This document shows, piece by piece, positions 1-7,898 of a DNA stretch of 7,898 bases (the stretch's first letter is position 1; each line of letters starts with the position of its first letter). The notes under the pieces were generated by a model, which saw only the letters and a list, made by a program, of their open reading frames with translations, did no database searches and was not told where the DNA came from. This DNA comes from a virus. Its lineage: Duplodnaviria; Heunggongvirae; Uroviricota; Caudoviricetes. Where the stretch lies: positions 1 to 7,898 of IMG/VR virus record IMGVR_UViG_2802429253_000006. The stretch is one strand, 5' to 3'. The position numbers and the translations under genes were made by a program.

Positions 1-397
1 TAAGGCAGTTACCCATTTTGAGGTATCCGCTGTCACCGGGAAAAATCATCGTACCGCCATAAAGGTTGGTAAAGTCCCAGCAAATGTTTGTCCCGTTATC
101 GTTCAGGTTAAGGCGCGCCATTGCGTTCCCTGGGCTGTCTATCCATTTTTTAAGGTATAGTTCGCAATACGCATCCTCAACACCTGCCGTCCTGTGAGTT
201 GAGCGAAGTTTTCGCCCAAATATAGCCCCGCTAGTTGGCAATACCTGCTGATACCATGCAGCAGACCAGTCATTAACGGTTTCATTTTTGCTGTCTACAT
301 ATGATTTTGTTACGTAGCTTCCTTGATCAGTTTTTAGTTTACTAACATCGAATTTTAGCGTTTTGATGTCATCAGGAATTACTGTTTTTGTAACCAT
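1..397 (-). CDS. Hypothetical protein, 5' part only (ORF runs off the left edge of the window); third gene of a minus-strand host operon
   Basis: ATG at complement 395-397, preceded by GGAG (complement of 405-408) with a 7-nt spacer. Hand translation of the minus strand is open to the window edge (MVTKTVIPDDIKTLKFDVSKLKTDQGSYVTKSYVDSKNETVNDW...). Absent from the ORF track only because it is incomplete. No family recognised. Confidence 0.5.
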   Translation of the reverse strand, partial: MVTKTVIPDDIKTLKFDVSKLKTDQGSYVTKSYVDSKNETVNDWSAAWYQQVLPTSGAIFGRKLRSTHRTAGVEDAYCELYLKKWIDSPGNAMARLNLNDNGTNICWDFTNLYGGTMIFPGDSGYLKMGNCL

Positions 398-409
398 TGT
401 CTTACTCCA

Positions 410-679
410 TTAAGCCCATGTCCTTACATGCTGATCTGTCGTAATGAAAGGCATTAAAGAAGATATGTTTTTACTGCTATCAACAATCCTCATGTTTACG
501 AAAAAACCACCGCGATCAATGCCTGTACATCTTTCGTTTTCTGGCTCCTCGTAATCGATAATGCAGCCAATAACATCAACAAGAACCCCGTTTTCTTCTT
601 CAAGACTGAACAGGCCACTGTCATATAAAATTGCGTTAAACTGTTCTCTGTTATCGAACCGTAATGTTATATCCCGCAT
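410..679 (-). CDS. Hypothetical small acidic protein (89 aa), middle gene of host operon
   Basis: ORF-track ORF. Its ATG (complement 677-679) overlaps the TAA stop of the upstream gene as TAATG, with AAGGAA 8 nt upstream, which indicates translational coupling. Only 10 nt separate its stop (410-412) from the RBS of the next gene. Confidence 0.5.
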   Translation of the reverse strand: MRDITLRFDNREQFNAILYDSGLFSLEEENGVLVDVIGCIIDYEEPENERCTGIDRGGFFVNMRIVDSSKNISSLMPFITTDQHVRTWA

Positions 680-1815
680 TATACGTATTCCTTAAGCTGC
701 GTATCTGACAATGCTCTGTTCCAGAAACGGAGATTTTTTATATGACCATTAAGGTGTCGTAATCCTGTCGTCGCTTGCCCCCCGATACGAATCACGGCAG
801 CTTCACGAATATATTTCCATACTGTTTTTGTTTCTGTGCTTATATGCTTATTTGCAAATGAGCATGTCATGCCGTCAGCCTTAACCCTGAATCCCATAAC
901 GAGATCTCTTACTCCGCATGACTCATATACACGTCGGTTAGCCCCGCCTATATCGCAATACGAATAACCGTCCTGACTGATAGTTCCAGAAGAACCAAAC
1001 CCCATAATAAATGGACCTCCGGACTGGTGATTTTCTGAATCAATGACACGCGGTGCAGCATTATGAGAAATAAACCAGTTTTTATGGACTTCCACCATGA
1101 ACGTAAAAGGCATGGTATACATATTTTTCATCAGCGGAAATTTACATAAATCTGATGCACGAGTCGCTGGCTCTGTTGTCGTTATGATGAAGGAAGTTGC
1201 ACAAGCACCGTACTCGAATTGCGGGGTGGTTACTTCTATCCAGTCACCTGTTGCAAAAGACCCCACAGCTCTGTCGGCTGCAATTTGCAGCTGCGTACCA
1301 ACCATTCCCCATTCTGGCAGACATTTCAGTGTTGCCTGAAAATATATCCACCCACTACCAGGGTCGATTTCAAAGTTTGCTGTTAATAGCTGGGCATTAC
1401 CACCCGTAATTTGTAGTTCATGAGTCTGTAATGACAAATAGGCGTCACAAAGAAAAGTGTATCCTTCCGAGTTATACCGTTCAAAACGGATACGTGCGCG
1501 AACATTGAGATCACTTCTTACCCTGAACGACGCGGTAACATACGGACCTTTACTGTACTGATCATCGCCAGTCACATCTATGCCTTTATTACCAGCAACT
1601 GTGCATATATTTCTCCCTGTTGTCGTTCCTGCTATATCGCTTCCTACCGTGAAACGTCCATATTTAAACTCAAATTCATCTGTTGATGATGTTACAGATA
1701 TACCACCGCTTTTATTCCACGCATCAGGATTAAAACTATTTACGAACATGTTTGTTCGCTGATTCTCTATCAGCAAACCATATTTTTCAAAACGAGGAAC
1801 GTTATTCCCTGCCAC
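679..1815 (-). pseudogene. 5'-truncated host gene, apparently disrupted by the prophage insertion; C-terminal LamG/concanavalin-like lectin-type domain, possibly phage tail-fibre-like
   Basis: The ORF-track start is a GTG at 1813-1815 with no Shine-Dalgarno sequence. The same frame stays open for three more codons into the Mu-like end and hits a stop at 1825-1827, so the true N-terminus is missing. The C-terminal motif ...HLNGHIKNLRFWNRALSDTQLKEYV is typical of LamG-type jelly-roll domains. Confidence 0.55.
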
Positions 1816-1820
1816 TGTAT

Positions 1821-1842
1821 TGATTCACGAGAAGTACGAAAA
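1821..1842 (+). other. attL MuA end-binding site L1
   Basis: tgattcacgagaagtacgaaaa matches the 22-bp MuA site consensus as I recall it (TGNTTCAYTNNAARYRCGAAAR) with one mismatch at position 9. It sits 5 bp inside the TG terminus. Confidence 0.7.
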
Positions 1843-1925
1843 AAACCGGGAGGATATTGGATTATTCGGGATTTGACGGGATTAGATTTGGTGGGGCTTG
1901 CAAGCCTGTAGAACAGATTTTAGCC

Positions 1926-1947
1926 GTTAAGCATTGAAACGCGAAAA
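1926..1947 (+). other. attL MuA end-binding site L2 (approximate; orientation uncertain)
   Basis: ...attgaaacgcgaaaa: the right half (AAACGCGAAAA) fits the consensus and the left half is poor. Position relative to the end (about 110-130 bp in) matches Mu L2. Confidence 0.4.
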
Positions 1948-1965
1948 TTTGTTAGAAATGGCTTT

Positions 1966-1987
1966 TGTTTCATTAAACATACGAAAA
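1966..1987 (+). other. attL MuA end-binding site L3
   Basis: tgtttcattaaacatacgaaaa matches the MuA site consensus at all but one defined position. Confidence 0.6.
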
Positions 1988-2155
1988 GCAATTGCTTCAC
2001 GCATTATTTCAATTGCAGCTTCAAAAACGCTTCAAACCCGATAACAACCAGGCTTCTGGCGAATGACGTATATCAAAAACAGCTTTTGTTGTTTCAGTAT
2101 CTTACCCTCTAGGTTACTTGAGGGGAAGTGTGTGTTTTAGCTAGGTTCCTGGTTG

Positions 2156-2746
2156 TTATACGGCTTTTTTTACATCTTGTGGATCCTGCAAAGGAGCTAC
2201 AAGACTCTCCTGTTCATTAATCCCATACTTTGACAAAATCTCTTTGCGTTTCTCTTCAGGTAATGCATCTAGCATCATCAACGTCTGGATACTTTGCTGT
2301 GAAAATCCTATAAAGCTGTAAAGTTTCTGTTCATTAAACACAAGAGGCATTAACGCCAATAGTCCACCTTTGCTTAAGAGTTTCAGTGCCTTACGTGCTT
2401 CATCTGGTTCCAGTTCTTCGATCATATTGATTAAGGTTGTAGTTAATTTGTTTATCAGCTCCGAAGAATCCTGCTGCTCATTAGCTTGAGCAGCAGTGCC
2501 AGGAATAGACAGACCTAGGTGTGCAATAACTTGCTCTCGTTCTTTGGTGGGCATAGACATCACATCGTATTCAACTGCTTTCCCCCCCTTCACACCTTCC
2601 TTTTTTCGCTTTATCCAGCCTTGAACATTTGCCCGATAGTGAACACCAGCAACAGATCCTGGCATACCATCAGCAGCCATAATTTCTTGCGGCGTACACC
2701 AGATCGACTTTTTAGTATCACCATTTTCTATAAAGTCACTTTTCAA
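2156..2746 (-). CDS. c: Mu-type repressor c (Repc), 196 aa
   Basis: The protein (MKSDFIENGDTKKSIWCTPQEIMAADGMPGSVAGVHYRANVQGW...QDPQDVKKAV) is near-identical in length and sequence to the phage Mu repressor as I recall it. The start is TTG (complement 2744-2746) with AAGGA 8 nt upstream. It is transcribed leftward toward attL. Confidence 0.9.
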   Translation of the reverse strand: MKSDFIENGDTKKSIWCTPQEIMAADGMPGSVAGVHYRANVQGWIKRKKEGVKGGKAVEYDVMSMPTKEREQVIAHLGLSIPGTAAQANEQQDSSELINKLTTTLINMIEELEPDEARKALKLLSKGGLLALMPLVFNEQKLYSFIGFSQQSIQTLMMLDALPEEKRKEILSKYGINEQESLVAPLQDPQDVKKAV

Positions 2747-2771
2747 AATTTAAATCCTTATTTTTCAATTA

Positions 2772-2800
2772 ATTATGCAAAACACACCTAACAATACCAA
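2772..2800 (-). promoter_or_regulatory. Candidate repressor promoter Pc (minus strand: -35 TTGGTA = complement of 2795-2800, 17-bp spacer, -10 CATAAT = complement of 2772-2777)
   Basis: Sigma70-like hexamers on the minus strand about 30 nt upstream of the c RBS, back to back with the Pe candidate. Confidence 0.35.
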
Positions 2801-2808
2801 AAAGCAGC

Positions 2809-2837
2809 TTTACAAAAAGCTTTTCAGTATTTATCTT
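2809..2837 (+). promoter_or_regulatory. Candidate early promoter Pe (-35 TTTACA 2809-2814, 17-bp spacer, -10 TATCTT 2832-2837)
   Basis: Sigma70-like hexamers with 17-bp spacing. The predicted start near 2843-2845 is about 1028 bp from the prophage end, matching the Pe start position in Mu as I recall it. The palindrome AAAAGCTTTT lies in the spacer. Confidence 0.45.
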
Positions 2838-2914
2838 TTTGGCAAGTAAACTAAGTTTTTACACTTAGTTAAATTGCTAACTTTATAGATTACAAAACTT
2901 AGGAGGGTTTTTAA

Positions 2915-3142
2915 ATGTGTTCCAGCGAAAAGGTCCGTGATTGGCATCGTGCTGATGTGATTGCGGGACTTAAGAAAAGAAAGCTCTCTTTATCAGCTCT
3001 TTCTCGGCAATTTGGTTATGCGCCAACGACATTAGCTAATGCGCTAGAGCGGCACTGGCCAAAGGGCGAACAGATTATTGCTAACGCCCTTGAAACTAAA
3101 CCAGAAGTCATCTGGCCTAGCCGATATCAAGCAGGTGAATAA
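2915..3142 (+). CDS. ner: Ner DNA-binding transcriptional regulator (negative regulator of early transcription), 75 aa
   Basis: The protein ([51 protein letters not shown]...) matches Mu Ner as I recall it. AGGAGG RBS at 2901-2906. The TAA stop at 3140-3142 is one nucleotide before the A start. Confidence 0.9.
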
Positions 3143-3143
3143 T

Positions 3144-5135
3144 ATGGAACTTTGGGTGTCACCGAAAGAGTGTGCGAATCTTCCAGGCTTGCCGAAAACA
3201 TCAGCTGGTGTGATTTATGTCGCTAAGAAGCAAGGATGGCAAAACCGCACTAGGGCAGGTGTCAAAGGAGGTAAGGCAATTGAATACAATGCTAACTCTT
3301 TACCTGTTGAAGCGAAAGCGGCTTTATTGCTTAGGCAAGGAGAGATTGAAACAAGCCTGGGCCGTTTTGAAATCGCCCGCCCCACGCTGGAAGCCCACGA
3401 TTATGATCGTGAGGTGCTGTGGAGCAAATGGGATAACGCCAGCGATTCCCAGCGCAGACTTGCTGAAAAATGGTTGCCTGCAGTTCAGGCCGCAGACGAA
3501 ATGCTGAACCAGGGTATTTCAACAAAAACGGCTTTTGCGACCGTTGCAGGGCATTACCAGGTCAGTGCATCCACTTTGCGTGACAAGTATTACCAGGTAC
3601 AGAAGTTTGCGAAGCCTGACTGGGCGGCTGCGCTTGTTGATGGACGTGGTGCATCCCGTCGCAACGTTCACAAAAGTGAATTTGACGAGGATGCCTGGCA
3701 GTTTCTGATTGCAGATTATCTGCGACCGGAAAAGCCCGCCTTCCGCAAATGTTATGAGCGTCTGGAACTGGCAGCCCGCGAGCATGGCTGGAGTATTCCC
3801 TCCCGTGCCACGGCCTTTCGCCGGATTCAGCAACTGGACGAGGCAATGGTTGTTGCCTGTCGTGAAGGTGAACATGCACTGATGCATCTGATACCGGCAC
3901 AGCAGCGAACTGTGGAACACCTGGACGCCATGCAGTGGATCAACGGCGACGGTTATCTGCATAACGTCTTTGTACGCTGGTTTAACGGTGATGTGATCCG
4001 TCCGAAAACATGGTTCTGGCAGGATGTGAAAACCCGAAAAATTCTGGGCTGGCGCTGCGATGTGAGCGAGAACATTGATTCAATTCGCCTCTCGTTCATG
4101 GATGTTGTGACTCGCTACGGTATCCCGGAGGATTTTCACATCACCATTGATAACACCCGTGGTGCTGCGAATAAATGGCTGACGGGAGGCGCGCCCAATC
4201 GCTACCGCTTTAAGGTAAAAGAGGACGATCCAAAAGGACTGTTTTTACTGATGGGGGCGAAAATGCACTGGACAAGCGTTGTTGCCGGTAAAGGCTGGGG
4301 CCAGGCAAAACCTGTTGAACGTGCTTTCGGTGTTGGTGGGCTTGAGGAATACGTTGATAAGCATCCGGCACTGGCTGGCGCATATACGGGGCCAAATCCG
4401 CAGGCAAAACCTGATAACTATGGCGACCGCGCTGTTGATGCAGAGCTGTTTCTGAAAACCCTTGCCGAAGGTGTGGCGATGTTCAATGCCAGAACAGGCC
4501 GTGAAACAGAAATGTGCGGGGGCAAACTCTCGTTTGATGATGTTTTCGAGCGTGAATACGCCAGAACGATTGTGCGTAAGCCAACCGAAGAACAAAAACG
4601 GATGCTGTTACTGCCTGCCGAGGCGGTGAACGTTTCACGCAAAGGCGAGTTTACGCTTAAAGTTGGCGGCTCCCTTAAAGGCGCGAAAAACGTTTATTAC
4701 AACATGGCGTTAATGAATGCCGGAGTGAAAAAAGTTGTGGTCAGGTTTGATCCACAGCAGCTACACAGCACGGTTTATTGCTACACCCTGGACGGTCGGT
4801 TTATCTGTGAAGCGGAATGTCTGGCACCAGTTGCATTTAATGATGCTGCGGCAGGCCGTGAGTATCGTCGACGCCAGAAACAACTGAAATCTGCAACTAA
4901 AGCAGCCATTAAGGCGCAGAAGCAAATGGACGCGCTGGAAGTTGCTGAACTGCTGCCGCAGATAGCCGAACCAGCAGCGCCAGAATCAAGGGTTGTTGGT
5001 ATTTTCCGGCCTTCCGGTAACACGGTGCAGGTGAAATACCAGGAACCCGATGATGAATATGAAACTGATCGTGATGAATATCTGAATCACTCGCTGGATA
5101 TTCTGGAACAGAACAGACGTAAAAAAGCCATTTAA
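3144..5135 (+). CDS. A: MuA DDE transposase, 663 aa
   Basis: The N-terminus [32 protein letters not shown]... and the C-terminus ...[10 protein letters not shown] (the Mu transposase tail recognised by ClpX) are both present. From ATG 3144 the catalytic codons fall at the canonical positions: D269 (GAC 3948-3950, in NGDGY), D336 (GAT 4149-4151, in ITIDNT) and E392 (GAA 4317-4319, in PVERAF). The ORF track's start at 3078 is an in-frame extension that overlaps ner. Confidence 0.95.
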
Positions 5136-5173
5136 TTAACGTTTAAACAAAATTTAATTACGAGGTTATTCAG

Positions 5174-6112
5174 ATGAATATTTCTGATATTCGCGCAGGA
5201 CTGCGCACGCTTGTAGAAAGCGAAAAAACAACTTATGCGCAAATCGCCCGCGAATCTGGAGTTGCCGCAGGAACGTTAAGCGCGTTCGTGAATAACAAGT
5301 ACAACGGCGATAATGAGCGTGTTGCGCAGACGCTGGAACGCTGGCTGGAGAACTATCACCGCGCCGCAGAACTGCCAGAACCCCCTCGTTTTGTGGAAAC
5401 CAGAACAGCACGTCAAATCTGGACGAGTATGCGCTTTGCCAGCCTGACTGAAAGTATTTCTGTTATCTGCGGTAATCCAGGTGTGGGAAAAACTGAAGCA
5501 GCCCGCGAATTTCGTCGCACCAATAACAATGTCTGGATGATCACCATTACCCCATCCTGTGCCAGTGTTCTGGAATGCCTGACTGAACTGGCTTATGAAC
5601 TGGGAATGAATGACGCACCGCGCCGTAAGGGGCCACTCTCCCGCGCTTTGCGACGCCGCCTTGAAGGTACGCAGGGGCTGGTCATTATCGACGAAGCTGA
5701 TCATCTTGGCGCTGAGGTTCTGGAAGAACTCCGCCTGTTACAGGAATCCGCCCGTATTGGTCTTGTTCTGATGGGGAATCACCGTGTTTATTCAAACATG
5801 ACCGGTGGTAACAGAACGGTTGAATTTGCCCGCCTGTTTTCCCGTATTGCAAAGCGGACGGCAATTAATAAAACCAAAATTGACGATGTAAAAGCCATTG
5901 CGGATGCCTGGCAAATTACCGGCGAAAACGAGCGGGAATTATTACAGCAGATTGCTCAAAAACCAGGTGCGCTTCGCATCCTGAACCACTCGCTGCGCCT
6001 TGCGGCCATGACCGCCCACGGTAAAGGTGAACGTGTTAATGAAGATTATCTGCGTCAGGCTTTCCGTGAATTAGACCTGGACGTTGATATTTCAACGCTG
6101 CTGCGTAATTAA
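5174..6112 (+). CDS. B: MuB ATP-dependent target-DNA activator (AAA+ ATPase), 312 aa
   Basis: 312 aa with Walker A GNPGVGKT and Walker B LVIIDEAD. The N-terminus MNISDIRAGLRTLVESEKTTYAQIARESGVAAGTLSAFVNNKY contains an HTH and matches Mu B as I recall it. RBS ACGAGG at 5160-5165. Confidence 0.95.
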   Translation: MNISDIRAGLRTLVESEKTTYAQIARESGVAAGTLSAFVNNKYNGDNERVAQTLERWLENYHRAAELPEPPRFVETRTARQIWTSMRFASLTESISVICGNPGVGKTEAAREFRRTNNNVWMITITPSCASVLECLTELAYELGMNDAPRRKGPLSRALRRRLEGTQGLVIIDEADHLGAEVLEELRLLQESARIGLVLMGNHRVYSNMTGGNRTVEFARLFSRIAKRTAINKTKIDDVKAIADAWQITGENERELLQQIAQKPGALRILNHSLRLAAMTAHGKGERVNEDYLRQAFRELDLDVDISTLLRN

Positions 6113-6127
6113 GAAGGAGAAGAAATT

Positions 6128-6355
6128 ATGATGGCCCGAAATATAAAAATGGCAACGGATGCGCAGAACTGGTTACAGGCGCGCGGGAGTCATGTAAATG
6201 AATCATATCTCGGCGTGGCGCGTCCGATTCTTGAAATCACTTACCCACCGGTGGAACTGGTAAAAAGCGCGGTCAGAATTATGGAGCATAAGTCCGGGGT
6301 GGCCCGTTCTGTATGGACGGCCCGTCTTAATGGTTGCCAGATTATCTGGAGATAA
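6128..6355 (+). CDS. kil: Small early protein at the position of Mu kil (75 aa); identity assigned by position only
   Basis: First ORF after B, with RBS AGGAG at 6115-6119 and an 8-nt spacer. Its size and position match Mu kil (about 74 aa). I do not recognise the sequence itself. Confidence 0.5.
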
Positions 6356-6357
6356 CG

Positions 6358-6588
6358 ATGTGTATTAAAGCTGAAAAATATATTGAATGGGTTAAACACT
6401 GTCAGTGCCACGGGGTGCCGCTGACGACATATAAATGCCCCGGATGTGGTGAACAGATTATGACGCAATGCTCACCCGAAAAGGAAATTCGGGATTCCCT
6501 GACATGTTGTCCGTGGTGCAGCGCGGTTTTCTTTAAGCAGGTAGAAGGCGCGAAGGTAAAGGTCAGCGCAATTATTCAGAATCAATAA
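6358..6588 (+). CDS. Cys-rich small protein, putative zinc ribbon (76 aa from ATG 6358)
   Basis: GGAG at 6348-6351 with a 6-nt spacer to ATG 6358. Cysteine pairs are C-x-C-H (CQCH), C-x2-C (CPGC) and CC-x2-C (CCPWC). The ORF track's start at 6334 is a TTG inside the upstream gene and is less likely. Confidence 0.6.
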   Translation: MCIKAEKYIEWVKHCQCHGVPLTTYKCPGCGEQIMTQCSPEKEIRDSLTCCPWCSAVFFKQVEGAKVKVSAIIQNQ

Positions 6589-6599
6589 GGAGAAACAAA

Positions 6600-6863
6600 A
6601 TGGCAAAAGTCATTATCGAAATCAAAAATGTGACATCTGAAGTTAAAGGGCAGCATTTACGCACCAATGTTAACGTGGACCACAGCGCAGAACTGGATGG
6701 TGATGAGTACACGCTTGCTGGTGCGATAGCGTTACTGGTTCTGGAAAAAAGCCGGGATATCGTTCGCGAGTCAGCCCATGAGGCCATTGAAATACTGAAA
6801 AATGATGGCGTCATTTCGGGTGGCAGTGTCACAGAAGCGACAGTTGAAGGAACACGTCACTGA
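6600..6863 (+). CDS. Hypothetical early-region protein, acidic (87 aa)
   Basis: AAGGAG at 6588-6593 with a 6-nt spacer to ATG 6600. Packed directly after the previous stop in the same orientation. Confidence 0.6.
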   Translation: MAKVIIEIKNVTSEVKGQHLRTNVNVDHSAELDGDEYTLAGAIALLVLEKSRDIVRESAHEAIEILKNDGVISGGSVTEATVEGTRH

Positions 6864-6877
6864 AAGGAACGCTGACA

Positions 6878-7297
6878 ATGAACACCAAAATCAGAAACGA
6901 AATTCAGGCATTAATTCGAATAAAAATGCGTAATAACAATCCAGGAGAATTACGCGAATTTATTTTCACCCGCAAAGTTTATGAGCATGGTGAAACTACT
7001 TATCTGATTACATTTGACCATTACAGCATTTGTGCGCGTTATTGTGGCGAAAACATCTCTAATGCCATCACGTTTGGCGGTGCGTTTAACGAGGATTTAT
7101 GGGAATACGTCATGGACCGCGGATACATCAGCGCGTCAGACCCGGACGCACGGGAGCAGTGGCAGAACATCTGGCGCGATTACCGGCAAATGGCGAAAGG
7201 CTGGACGCAGGGGACGTATTCTTCCCTTGCCCTGAAAGCGGTTCAGTTATCGCTGCGGCATATTCCGGCATCACTGCGTGAACCCCTGTTGTACTGA
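6878..7297 (+). CDS. Hypothetical early-region protein (139 aa)
   Basis: AAGGA at 6864-6868 with a 9-nt spacer to ATG 6878. It is the longest frame here. The overlapping alternative-frame ORFs in the track lack an RBS. Confidence 0.6.
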   Translation: MNTKIRNEIQALIRIKMRNNNPGELREFIFTRKVYEHGETTYLITFDHYSICARYCGENISNAITFGGAFNEDLWEYVMDRGYISASDPDAREQWQNIWRDYRQMAKGWTQGTYSSLALKAVQLSLRHIPASLREPLLY

Positions 7298-7309
7298 GTG
7301 GTGACCGGA

Positions 7310-7597
7310 ATGATGTGTAAGCGTAAACGCTGGTCACGCGAAGACCGGGAATTTATCGAAGCCAGTGTCTGGAAAATGACCGTCGAGGAAATGGCGAAAA
7401 AACTGAAAGTTGCCACAACCGCTCTCCGGGCACATGCCAGAAGGCACGGAATATCGTTGTGTGTTTACCGAATAAGTGAGCACGACAAATATTTGTGTCG
7501 TGAACTTTATAAAGAAGGGCTGGCTATTCATGTCATTGCCCAAAAGATGGAATTAAGCAATCGTGCTGTATCCAGCATTGTATACAGCGAATATTAA
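7310..7597 (+). CDS. Hypothetical early-region protein with helix-turn-helix-like segments (about 95 aa; start at GTG 7298, ATG 7310 or ATG 7313)
   Basis: Frame open from 7298 to the TAA at 7595-7597. ATG 7310 and 7313 are preceded by GGTGA (7300-7304). The segments MTVEEMAKKLKVATTALRAHARRHGI and LAIHVIAQKMELSNRAVSSIV look like HTH motifs. Confidence 0.55.
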   Translation: MMCKRKRWSREDREFIEASVWKMTVEEMAKKLKVATTALRAHARRHGISLCVYRISEHDKYLCRELYKEGLAIHVIAQKMELSNRAVSSIVYSEY

Positions 7598-7615
7598 TTA
7601 ACAGGAGCTTTATTT

Positions 7616-7898
7616 ATGGCTAAATCAGCAAAGCGTATTAAAAGTGCCGCAGCGACTTATGTCCCACAATCCCGCGATGCCGTGGTATGTGATATCCGCC
7701 GGATTGGGGACCTGCAACGCGAAGCAGCACGACTTGAAACGGAAATGAATGACGCTATCGCTGAAATTACTGAGAAATACGCCTCACAGATTGCGCCCCT
7801 TAAAACCAGTATCGAAACCCTTTCAAAAGGCGTTCAGGGATGGTGTGAAGCGAACCGTGACGAACTGACGAACGGCGGCAAGGTGAAGACGGCAAACC
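7616..7898 (+). CDS. gam: Gam host-nuclease inhibitor (Ku-like DNA end-binding protein), N-terminal 94 codons; continues beyond the window
   Basis: MAKSAKRIKSAAATYVPQSRDAVVCDIRRIGDLQREAARLETEMNDAIAEITEKY...GWCEANRDELTNGGKVKTAN matches Mu Gam as I recall it. AGGAG RBS at 7603-7607. Confidence 0.9.
   Translation, partial: MAKSAKRIKSAAATYVPQSRDAVVCDIRRIGDLQREAARLETEMNDAIAEITEKYASQIAPLKTSIETLSKGVQGWCEANRDELTNGGKVKTAN

Follow-up and report, generated by a model that had tools for sequence, protein, structure and literature searches.

Conserved ends and variable slots in the kil-gp9 interval of a Mu-like prophage from Escherichia sp. MOD1-EC6162

The DNA analyzed here (positions 1 to 7,898 of the IMG/VR virus record IMGVR_UViG_2802429253_000006; hereafter the window, 7,898 nucleotides long) holds, from 1816 to 7898, the left end of a Mu-like prophage, which aligns to phage Mu at 71-100% identity. 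Five small open reading frames (ORFs) running in the same direction lie between the B and gam genes of this prophage, and are the subject of this report. As judged by alignment they are orthologues of the Mu genes kil to gp9, the promoter-proximal part of the semi-essential (SE) early region (Table 1). The Mu end sequence TGTATTGATTCAC starts at position 1816, and is followed by the c repressor gene on the minus strand, ner, A, and B; the c product matches the Pfam Mu DNA-binding domain (E 2e-52), the ner product HTH_35 (E 1.5e-27). Exact copies of all five proteins are found in NCBI records of Escherichia sp. MOD1-EC6162, and public records label each of them 'hypothetical protein'. The sequence thus places the host element among the Mu-like transposable prophages, genus Muvirus, of this strain.

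Counterparts in the Mu (NC_000929 / AF083977, Mup05-Mup09) and D108 records are kil (Mup05), gp6 (E5), gp7 (E6), gp8 (E7), and gp9 (E8), followed by gam, and gene order, sizes, spacing, and the B and gam flanks match those of the window. The kil-gp9 block is 88% identical to Mu DNA over its full length, with the genes in identical order. Among PHROGs, the kil product falls in phrog_2743 (Kil, E 4e-43), gp6, gp7, and gp8 in phrog_3786, phrog_10252 (E 4e-39), and phrog_3690, respectively, all labeled as unknown function, and gp9 in phrog_323 (E 6e-27), computationally labeled 'transcriptional regulator, D5-like'. An initial annotation of the window had described five co-directional ORFs between B and gam, one Cys-rich and zinc-ribbon-like and one helix-turn-helix (HTH)-like; number, sizes, spacing, and ribosome-binding motifs are all borne out, as are conserved cysteines in gp6 and two predicted HTH domains in gp9. 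The comparison with Mu and D108 early proteins that it had called for returned an orthologue for each ORF. The first one, 97-99% identical to Mu and D108 Kil, had gone unrecognized as kil.

Table 1. Features of the window. Presence and median pairwise identity refer to the 41 loci having both a close B and gam
Feature	Position	Strand	Remarks	Protein identity to Mu	Protein identity to D108	Presence in close loci	Median pairwise identity
Promoter-like site at Mu Pe position, between c and ner	2809-2837	+	sigma-70-like match				
B (MuB AAA+ target-DNA activator)	5174-6112	+	312 aa; upstream anchor	90%	90%		
kil (Mu gp5)	6128-6355	+	75 aa; 74 aa from second ATG 6131, the start annotated in Mu	97% (73/75)	99% (74/75)	41/41	87%
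gp6 (E5)	6358-6588	+	76 aa from ATG; ORF list extends to TTG 6334	96%	89%	23/41	79%
gp7 (E6), Gnarl2 homologue	6600-6863	+	87 aa	71% (62/87, ungapped)	26%	40/41	39%
gp8 (E7)	6878-7297	+	139 aa	81%	82%	35/41	83%
gp9 (E8)	7310-7597	+	95 aa (NCBI annotation of contig); 99 aa from GTG 7298	90%	89%	40/41	87%
gam (Mu gp10, host nuclease inhibitor)	7616-7898	+	5' part only, cut by contig end; downstream anchor				

The genes are tightly packed, being separated by 15 (B to kil), 2 (kil to gp6), 11 (gp6 to gp7), 14 (gp7 to gp8), 12 (gp8 to gp9), and 18 (gp9 to gam) nucleotides. Purine-rich motifs resembling Shine-Dalgarno sequences (GAAGGAG, GGAG, AAGGAG, AAAGGA) precede the start codons by 5-10 nucleotides; the one of gp9 (GGA) is weak. 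The start of gp9 is ambiguous (window 7298-7312). The RefSeq Mu record places it at an ATG immediately following the gp8 stop codon (99 residues), a position at which the window has GTG; the GenBank Mu record and the NCBI annotation of the contig place it at a downstream ATG (95 residues). The gap between gp8 and gp9 shrinks to 0 nucleotides if GTG 7298 is used. Between window and Mu, the ratio of nonsynonymous to synonymous substitutions (dN/dS) is 0.18 for gp6, 0.25 for gp7, 0.18 for gp8, and 0.13 for gp9, at dS values of 0.09-0.85 (0.85 for gp7, 0.71 for gp8); kil is 99.5% identical to Mu at the nucleotide level. Median ratios over pairs of Mu-type loci range from 0.07 to 0.36. The first 94 codons of gam, 83% identical in nucleotides to Mu gam, give a ratio of 0.11, in the same synteny as in Mu and D108. 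By these substitution patterns all five ORFs are real genes under purifying selection. None of the five proteins features a transmembrane-like segment; Kil (pI 10.2) and gp9 are basic, gp7 (pI 5.1) is acidic and soluble.

The promoter-like site found at the position of Mu Pe is the only one on the plus strand between 2700 and 7898, and resides in DNA 93-97% identical to Mu. The same interval has a single terminator-like site on the plus strand, a weak hairpin within gp6 (6511-6526), the 5-bp stem of which is followed by TTTTCTTT. Internal promoters and terminators do not exceed in number the expectation from shuffled sequences, and the hairpin is therefore probably a chance occurrence. No credible RNA element was detected by Rfam at permissive thresholds in the whole window. 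The Mu Pe transcript runs from ner to C (PMC3820752), and the layout of the window is consistent with a single operon, presumably one Pe transcript spanning ner, A, B, and the five genes through gam.

The block is a mosaic. Relative to Mu, kil and gp6 are 99-100% identical in nucleotides, gp7 and gp8 only 71-85%. In contrast, gp7 and gp8 are about 99% identical to those of the IMG/VR locus L009, which lacks gp6 and carries a different kil allele. B represents a third type: it matches B of the IMG/VR loci L004-L011 at 100% identity and Mu B at 90%. On these identities the window block is a recombinant of different lineages, with kil and gp6 of the Mu type and gp7 and gp8 of another lineage, and the breakpoints fall close to gene boundaries. 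Similarity to Mu is uneven upstream as well: about 900 bases in the central part of A (window 3691-4600) match Mu at 100% identity, and identity falls to 71-79% at the 5' end of B (window 5191-5400). The genes were already known, and the window itself is nothing special, being one more mosaic Mu-like prophage.

To follow how the interval varies, loci were collected through their B gene, which served as an unbiased anchor; IMG/VR supplied 80 Mu-like loci, and reference genomes a further 11. As the counts and identities in Table 1 indicate, kil and gp9 are conserved anchors, between which three variable slots are found. The first is filled by gp6, by a gene of 70 codons, or by nothing, the second by members of the gp7 family, the third by gp8 or by nothing. 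The 70-residue alternative to gp6 is unrelated to it and features the His-rich motif HVGNHHHAEN (L004 5188-5400; also L005, L006, L029, L062). In L007 the gp6 slot is empty, and gp8 is absent as well. In loci with B about 77-78% identical, which is the level of Klebsiella, Raoultella, and Pluralibacter prophages, kil (53%) and gp9 (47-51%) are retained, either adjacent or with other, unrelated small genes in between; these loci lack gp6 and gp7, and in just one of them gp8 is represented by a distant relative. Kil-like proteins (about 30-35% identity) are still present where B is about 50% identical.

Members of the gp7 family diverge by far faster than any other gene of the block (median identity 39%, vs. 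79-87% for the neighbours). Three allele clusters share the slot, with 18 loci carrying the D108 type, 14 the Mu/Gnarl2 type, and 8 a third type, their mutual identity being 24-47%. The view that these are unrelated cassettes was rejected, as the clusters are remote homologues in profile-profile comparison (hhalign probability 92%, E 6.7e-7, full length), and have the start MAKVI(I/F)E and a terminal His in common. A similar gp7-like protein is found in a distant group with B about 52% identical. The exact allele of the window resides on 130 contigs.

Mu gp7 (NP_050611.1, NC_000929 4784..5047) is the gene gnarl2 (orf63) of Silas et al., Nat Commun 2025 (PMC12373910), an identity confirmed in the supplement of that paper. 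It was picked from a hypervariable accessory region by an algorithm aimed at counter-defence accessory regions (PMC12373910 and its preprint). Expressed alone, Gnarl2 shifts O-antigen bands down in ECOR1 and ECOR22, and T5 infection is enhanced 10^5-10^6-fold; gnarl2 is conditionally lethal in some hosts (PMC12373910). Affinity purification-mass spectrometry (AP-MS) revealed no clear partner of Gnarl2, and Gnarl3 binds GalU (PMC12373910). As shown by the comparison of loci, gp7 of the window likewise sits in a hypervariable region flanked by conserved genes.

Expression of Mu kil yields spherical cells (Waggoner 1989, as cited in PMC3961180). The lambda and Rac Kil proteins share the gene name with Mu Kil, and are likewise small, prophage-encoded, and toxic on expression. 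Yet no significant sequence similarity links them to Mu Kil, and they induce filaments via FtsZ, Mu Kil spheres (PMC3961180). The notion that Mu-type kil codes for an FtsZ inhibitor of the lambda/Rac type was discarded on these published grounds. The label 'Kil protein for bacterial septation inhibition', attached to Mup05 and phrog_2743, appears to have been mis-transferred, because the sequences are unrelated and the phenotypes differ.

Two CxxC knuckles, C27-P-G-C30 and C51-P-W-C54, are found in gp6 about 20 residues apart. Three of the four cysteines (Cys27, Cys51, Cys54) never vary, and Cys30 is kept in six of seven homologue clusters, including a homologue only 27% identical. In P0056, a gp6 cluster of 74 members from Salmonella, Tyr replaces Cys30 (CPKY), which is odd for a structural zinc site. 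Zinc-ribbon models of Pfam and NCBIfam match below cut-off (Zn_ribbon_ACC 15 bits, FmdB-type 17.9 bits), the ECs_2282 model is likewise matched weakly and below cut-off, and all homologues bear the precomputed assignment PF26833.1. The protein is predicted from its cysteine pattern to be a zinc-ribbon-like (C4) protein.

Homologues of gp8 form 23 clusters, all from Mu-like prophages of Enterobacterales, and all at least 70% identical except P0023 (41%), apparently a frameshifted copy of gp8. Scanning 1.8 billion representatives with HMMER added one further relative (P0065, 33% identical, 113 residues); the other matches were spurious hits to repeat proteins. A distant relative (31%, 105 residues, P0065-like) is located between B and kil in L042 (2855-3148). 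Since this relative sits upstream of kil, the gp8 family moves between slots. The AlphaFold model, built on an alignment of 11 sequences, has a predicted local distance difference test (pLDDT) score of 42, and was not used for fold searches. In the searches made, gp8 thus behaves as an orphan, its family being restricted to Mu-like prophages of enterobacteria.

The AlphaFold model of gp9 (pLDDT 80.5) features helices at residues 10-19, 25-32, and 36-45 and at 57-68, 73-79, and 84-93, and two three-helix HTH domains in tandem are predicted, the C-terminal one being the best conserved part of the protein. The nearest PDB folds are the bipartite DNA-binding domains of Tc3 transposase, AraC, and Cbp1, the matches also including the IstA transposase and ArdK, a plasmid HTH protein; all are weak (E > 0.08). 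Many small unnamed phage HTH proteins, some GcrA-like, are matched in BFVD (E 4e-5 to 1e-2). In L052 and L064 the homologue is 160 residues long, and the N-terminal HTH is duplicated in tandem, making three HTH units in place of two. PDB sequence searches, run with each of the five proteins singly and with profiles of gp8, gp9, and the gp7 family, gave nothing significant. No match to the five proteins exceeded the curated cut-offs in Pfam, NCBIfam, and PADLOC, the weak HTH and zinc-ribbon matches indicating fold class only. In the literature searched, functional work on gp6, gp8, or gp9 was not found, and only the gnarl2 papers were new.

Many E. coli genomes carry intact 'prophage tail fiber' genes to which the DNA left of the prophage (window 1-1815) is 97-98% identical. 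A minus-strand ORF (679-1815) is interrupted at the Mu left end (junction 1815/1816), and a small ORF lies downstream at 410-679. The Mu-like element therefore transposed into a tail-fiber gene of another resident prophage. A further gp7-family protein, WP_105281903.1 (P0104), which falls in the same 90% cluster, is encoded in the same strain by a different contig of 173,208 bases, and MOD1-EC6162 may thus carry a second Mu-like prophage.

The SE region of Mu includes 14 ORFs, most of them with no assigned function (PMC3325207), and has been termed poorly conserved and coding for small proteins of uncharacterized function (PMC8705779). Its deletion restores host viability after MuBam infection, and Mu deleted for the region gives 100% lysogen recovery in wild-type cells (PMC3325207). 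These data, and the turnover of the slots between kil and gp9, agree with the initial annotation, which took the region to interact with the host and to be a place for accessory functions; that it is dispensable for transposition, as also stated there, is in line with the Mu literature. Other parts of that proposal stand in part. The five genes had been offered as the best candidate for 'uncharacterized biology'; all have long been annotated in Mu, and the description therefore does not fully apply, kil and gp7 having phenotypes, but it does hold for gp6, gp8, and gp9, which have no assigned function. It had been conceded that near-identity of all five to characterized Mu proteins with unrelated functions would refute the proposal; this applies only by half, since the five are indeed Mu orthologues, but the two characterized ones are host-directed and the other three have no assigned function. 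Of the suggested host-takeover or anti-defence module, the first half is favored by the host-directed effects of Mu kil and gp7, but for the second no anti-restriction or anti-CRISPR activity was found in the literature searched.

The reading favored here, to which a probability of about 0.8 is given, is that the kil-gp9 interval is the early block of a Mu-like SE region, and codes for small soluble proteins most probably acting on the host, not in transposition. Kil would kill the host and turn rods into spheres, presumably by blocking the cell-elongation machinery. As a homologue of Gnarl2, gp7 would act in the same way, downshifting O-antigen and sensitizing cells to T5, and, by analogy with Gnarl3 and GalU, it may bind a host envelope-biosynthesis enzyme, altering O-antigen and lipopolysaccharide (LPS). 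Mu adsorbs to LPS, and remodeling of the receptor surface is therefore a likely benefit: either superinfecting phage would be excluded, or the progeny would be kept off cell debris. That gp7 diverges so fast would then mirror how varied the O-antigen and LPS pathways of the hosts are. The zinc-ribbon-like gp6 and the orphan gp8 may be further exchangeable host-directed accessory proteins, and gp9, conserved and modeled as two HTH domains, would bind DNA and probably be regulatory.

Several points weigh against this reading. The target or host specificity of the window gp7 may differ from that of Gnarl2, because 29% of positions differ in a fast-diverging family. What was published for Gnarl2 is that its heterologous expression sensitizes cells to another phage, and the protein was left without a clear partner by AP-MS (PMC12373910); its natural benefit to Mu is itself putative. 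For gp6 and gp8 no functional work was found in the literature searched, and PDB, HMMER, and profile searches provided no informative remote homologue of gp8. Lastly gp9, if DNA-binding as modeled and conserved across genera as it is, could serve phage DNA transactions in place of host control.

The last point can be extended to an explanation in which some of the five proteins, especially gp9 and gp6, help the DNA transactions of Mu itself (transposition, replication, early or middle transcription). Conservation of gp9 alongside kil in several enterobacterial genera, while accessory slots vary, is in line with it, and so are replication-stimulating ('arm') and immunity-control ('cim') phenotypes mapped to the SE region (PMC4553209), cim being equated with kil in the GenBank Mu record. 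Transposases (Tc3, IstA) supply some of the best structural analogues of gp9 through their bipartite DNA-binding domains, but such weak matches are generic for paired HTH domains. Moreover arm presumably lies to the right of gam on the classical Mu map, hence outside the kil-gp9 block, many relatives that are intact in other respects lack gp6 and gp8, as would not be expected of core genes, and SE-deleted Mu still gives full lysogen recovery in wild-type cells. We regard this explanation as unlikely. That some ORFs are not genes, but chance frames or decaying remnants of a defective prophage, could be suggested by their uniform annotation as hypothetical proteins, the lack of gp8 relatives outside one narrow clade, and a short contig with only the left end of a prophage. 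Each ORF, however, aligns colinearly with its Mu counterpart over the full length, dN/dS stays well below 1 at the substantial dS of gp7 and gp8, and each is found on many independent contigs, a support that the minus-strand ORFs of the region do not have; the suggestion is next to untenable.

The interval also resembles an anti-defence island of the acr-aca type, in which gp6, gp7, and gp8 would inhibit intracellular immunity and gp9 would be an Aca-like repressor. Variable small genes precede a conserved small HTH gene as in such islands, the gp7 slot was found by an algorithm built for counter-defence accessory regions, and ArdK is among the fold matches of gp9. The resemblance does not extend to regulation. 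Operons of the acr-aca type have a dedicated promoter and operator, whereas the genes of the window apparently lie inside a long early operon, 2-18 nucleotides apart and with no plus-strand promoter-like site in 5900-7898; the gaps are too short for a promoter or operator, which makes autoregulation by gp9 as an Aca-like protein unlikely. Homology to known acr-aca members was not detected in Pfam, PHROGs, NCBIfam, PADLOC, and PDB. Moreover the effect of gnarl2, the one gene tested, is on the O-antigen barrier instead of an intracellular system. An I-F CRISPR system of E. coli, when provided with a spacer against Mu, reduces plaquing of the phage about 100-fold (PMC12248084), and Mu genes therefore do not fully block that system; Mu is only a test phage in that paper, which deals with AcrIE9. 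Inhibition of restriction-modification, CRISPR, or abortive infection by any of the five was not found in the literature searched, and no defence-related or inhibitor model was matched in Pfam, PHROGs, NCBIfam, PADLOC, and PDB, which is weak evidence, since these are not dedicated anti-defence libraries. Taken together, an acr-aca island is quite improbable.

Within the favored reading, namely a block of host-directed early genes, a more far-reaching version can be drawn, tentative and on balance doubtful, in which the kil-gp9 interval would be a general site of cassette exchange in enterobacterial Mu-like phages, each occupant being a small protein that inhibits, on its own, a different host protein of the envelope or of immunity. 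Were this true, the three gp7 clusters would correspond to different enzymes of O-antigen or LPS biosynthesis in the host, as enzyme-free 'seroconversion' factors tracking serotype; gp6, the 70-residue His-rich protein, and gp8 would count as novel inhibitors directed at novel targets, and their dosage would be controlled by gp9. Although Mu is a textbook phage, gp6, gp8, and gp9 have no assigned function, and the remaining interest of the block resides in these and in the hypervariable gp7 family. With kil and gp9 as the conserved core, their phenotypes are expected in any Mu-like phage; with gp6, gp7, and gp8 as exchangeable cassettes, effects are expected to depend on the host strain. Natural gp7 variants could be used to find the binding partner of Gnarl2, and to learn whether the LPS receptor surface of Mu is protected.

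Two known systems bear on the role proposed for gp7. D3112 and DMS3 are Mu-like phages of Pseudomonas, and carry the genes for Gp05 and Aqs1, respectively, in their early regions. Both proteins disable PilB, which serves type IV pilus assembly, and are listed as instances of receptor inactivation (PMC11436027). They provide a model for the action of gp7 on LPS by functional analogy only, the receptor being type IV pili in one case and LPS in the other, and no sequence relationship was found. The second system is Gnarl2 itself, of which the window gp7 is a full-length homologue of equal length, with the same MAKVIIEIKN start, the same terminal His, and the same slot; 29% of the residues differ, and the published phenotype is that of the Mu allele in ECOR1 and ECOR22.

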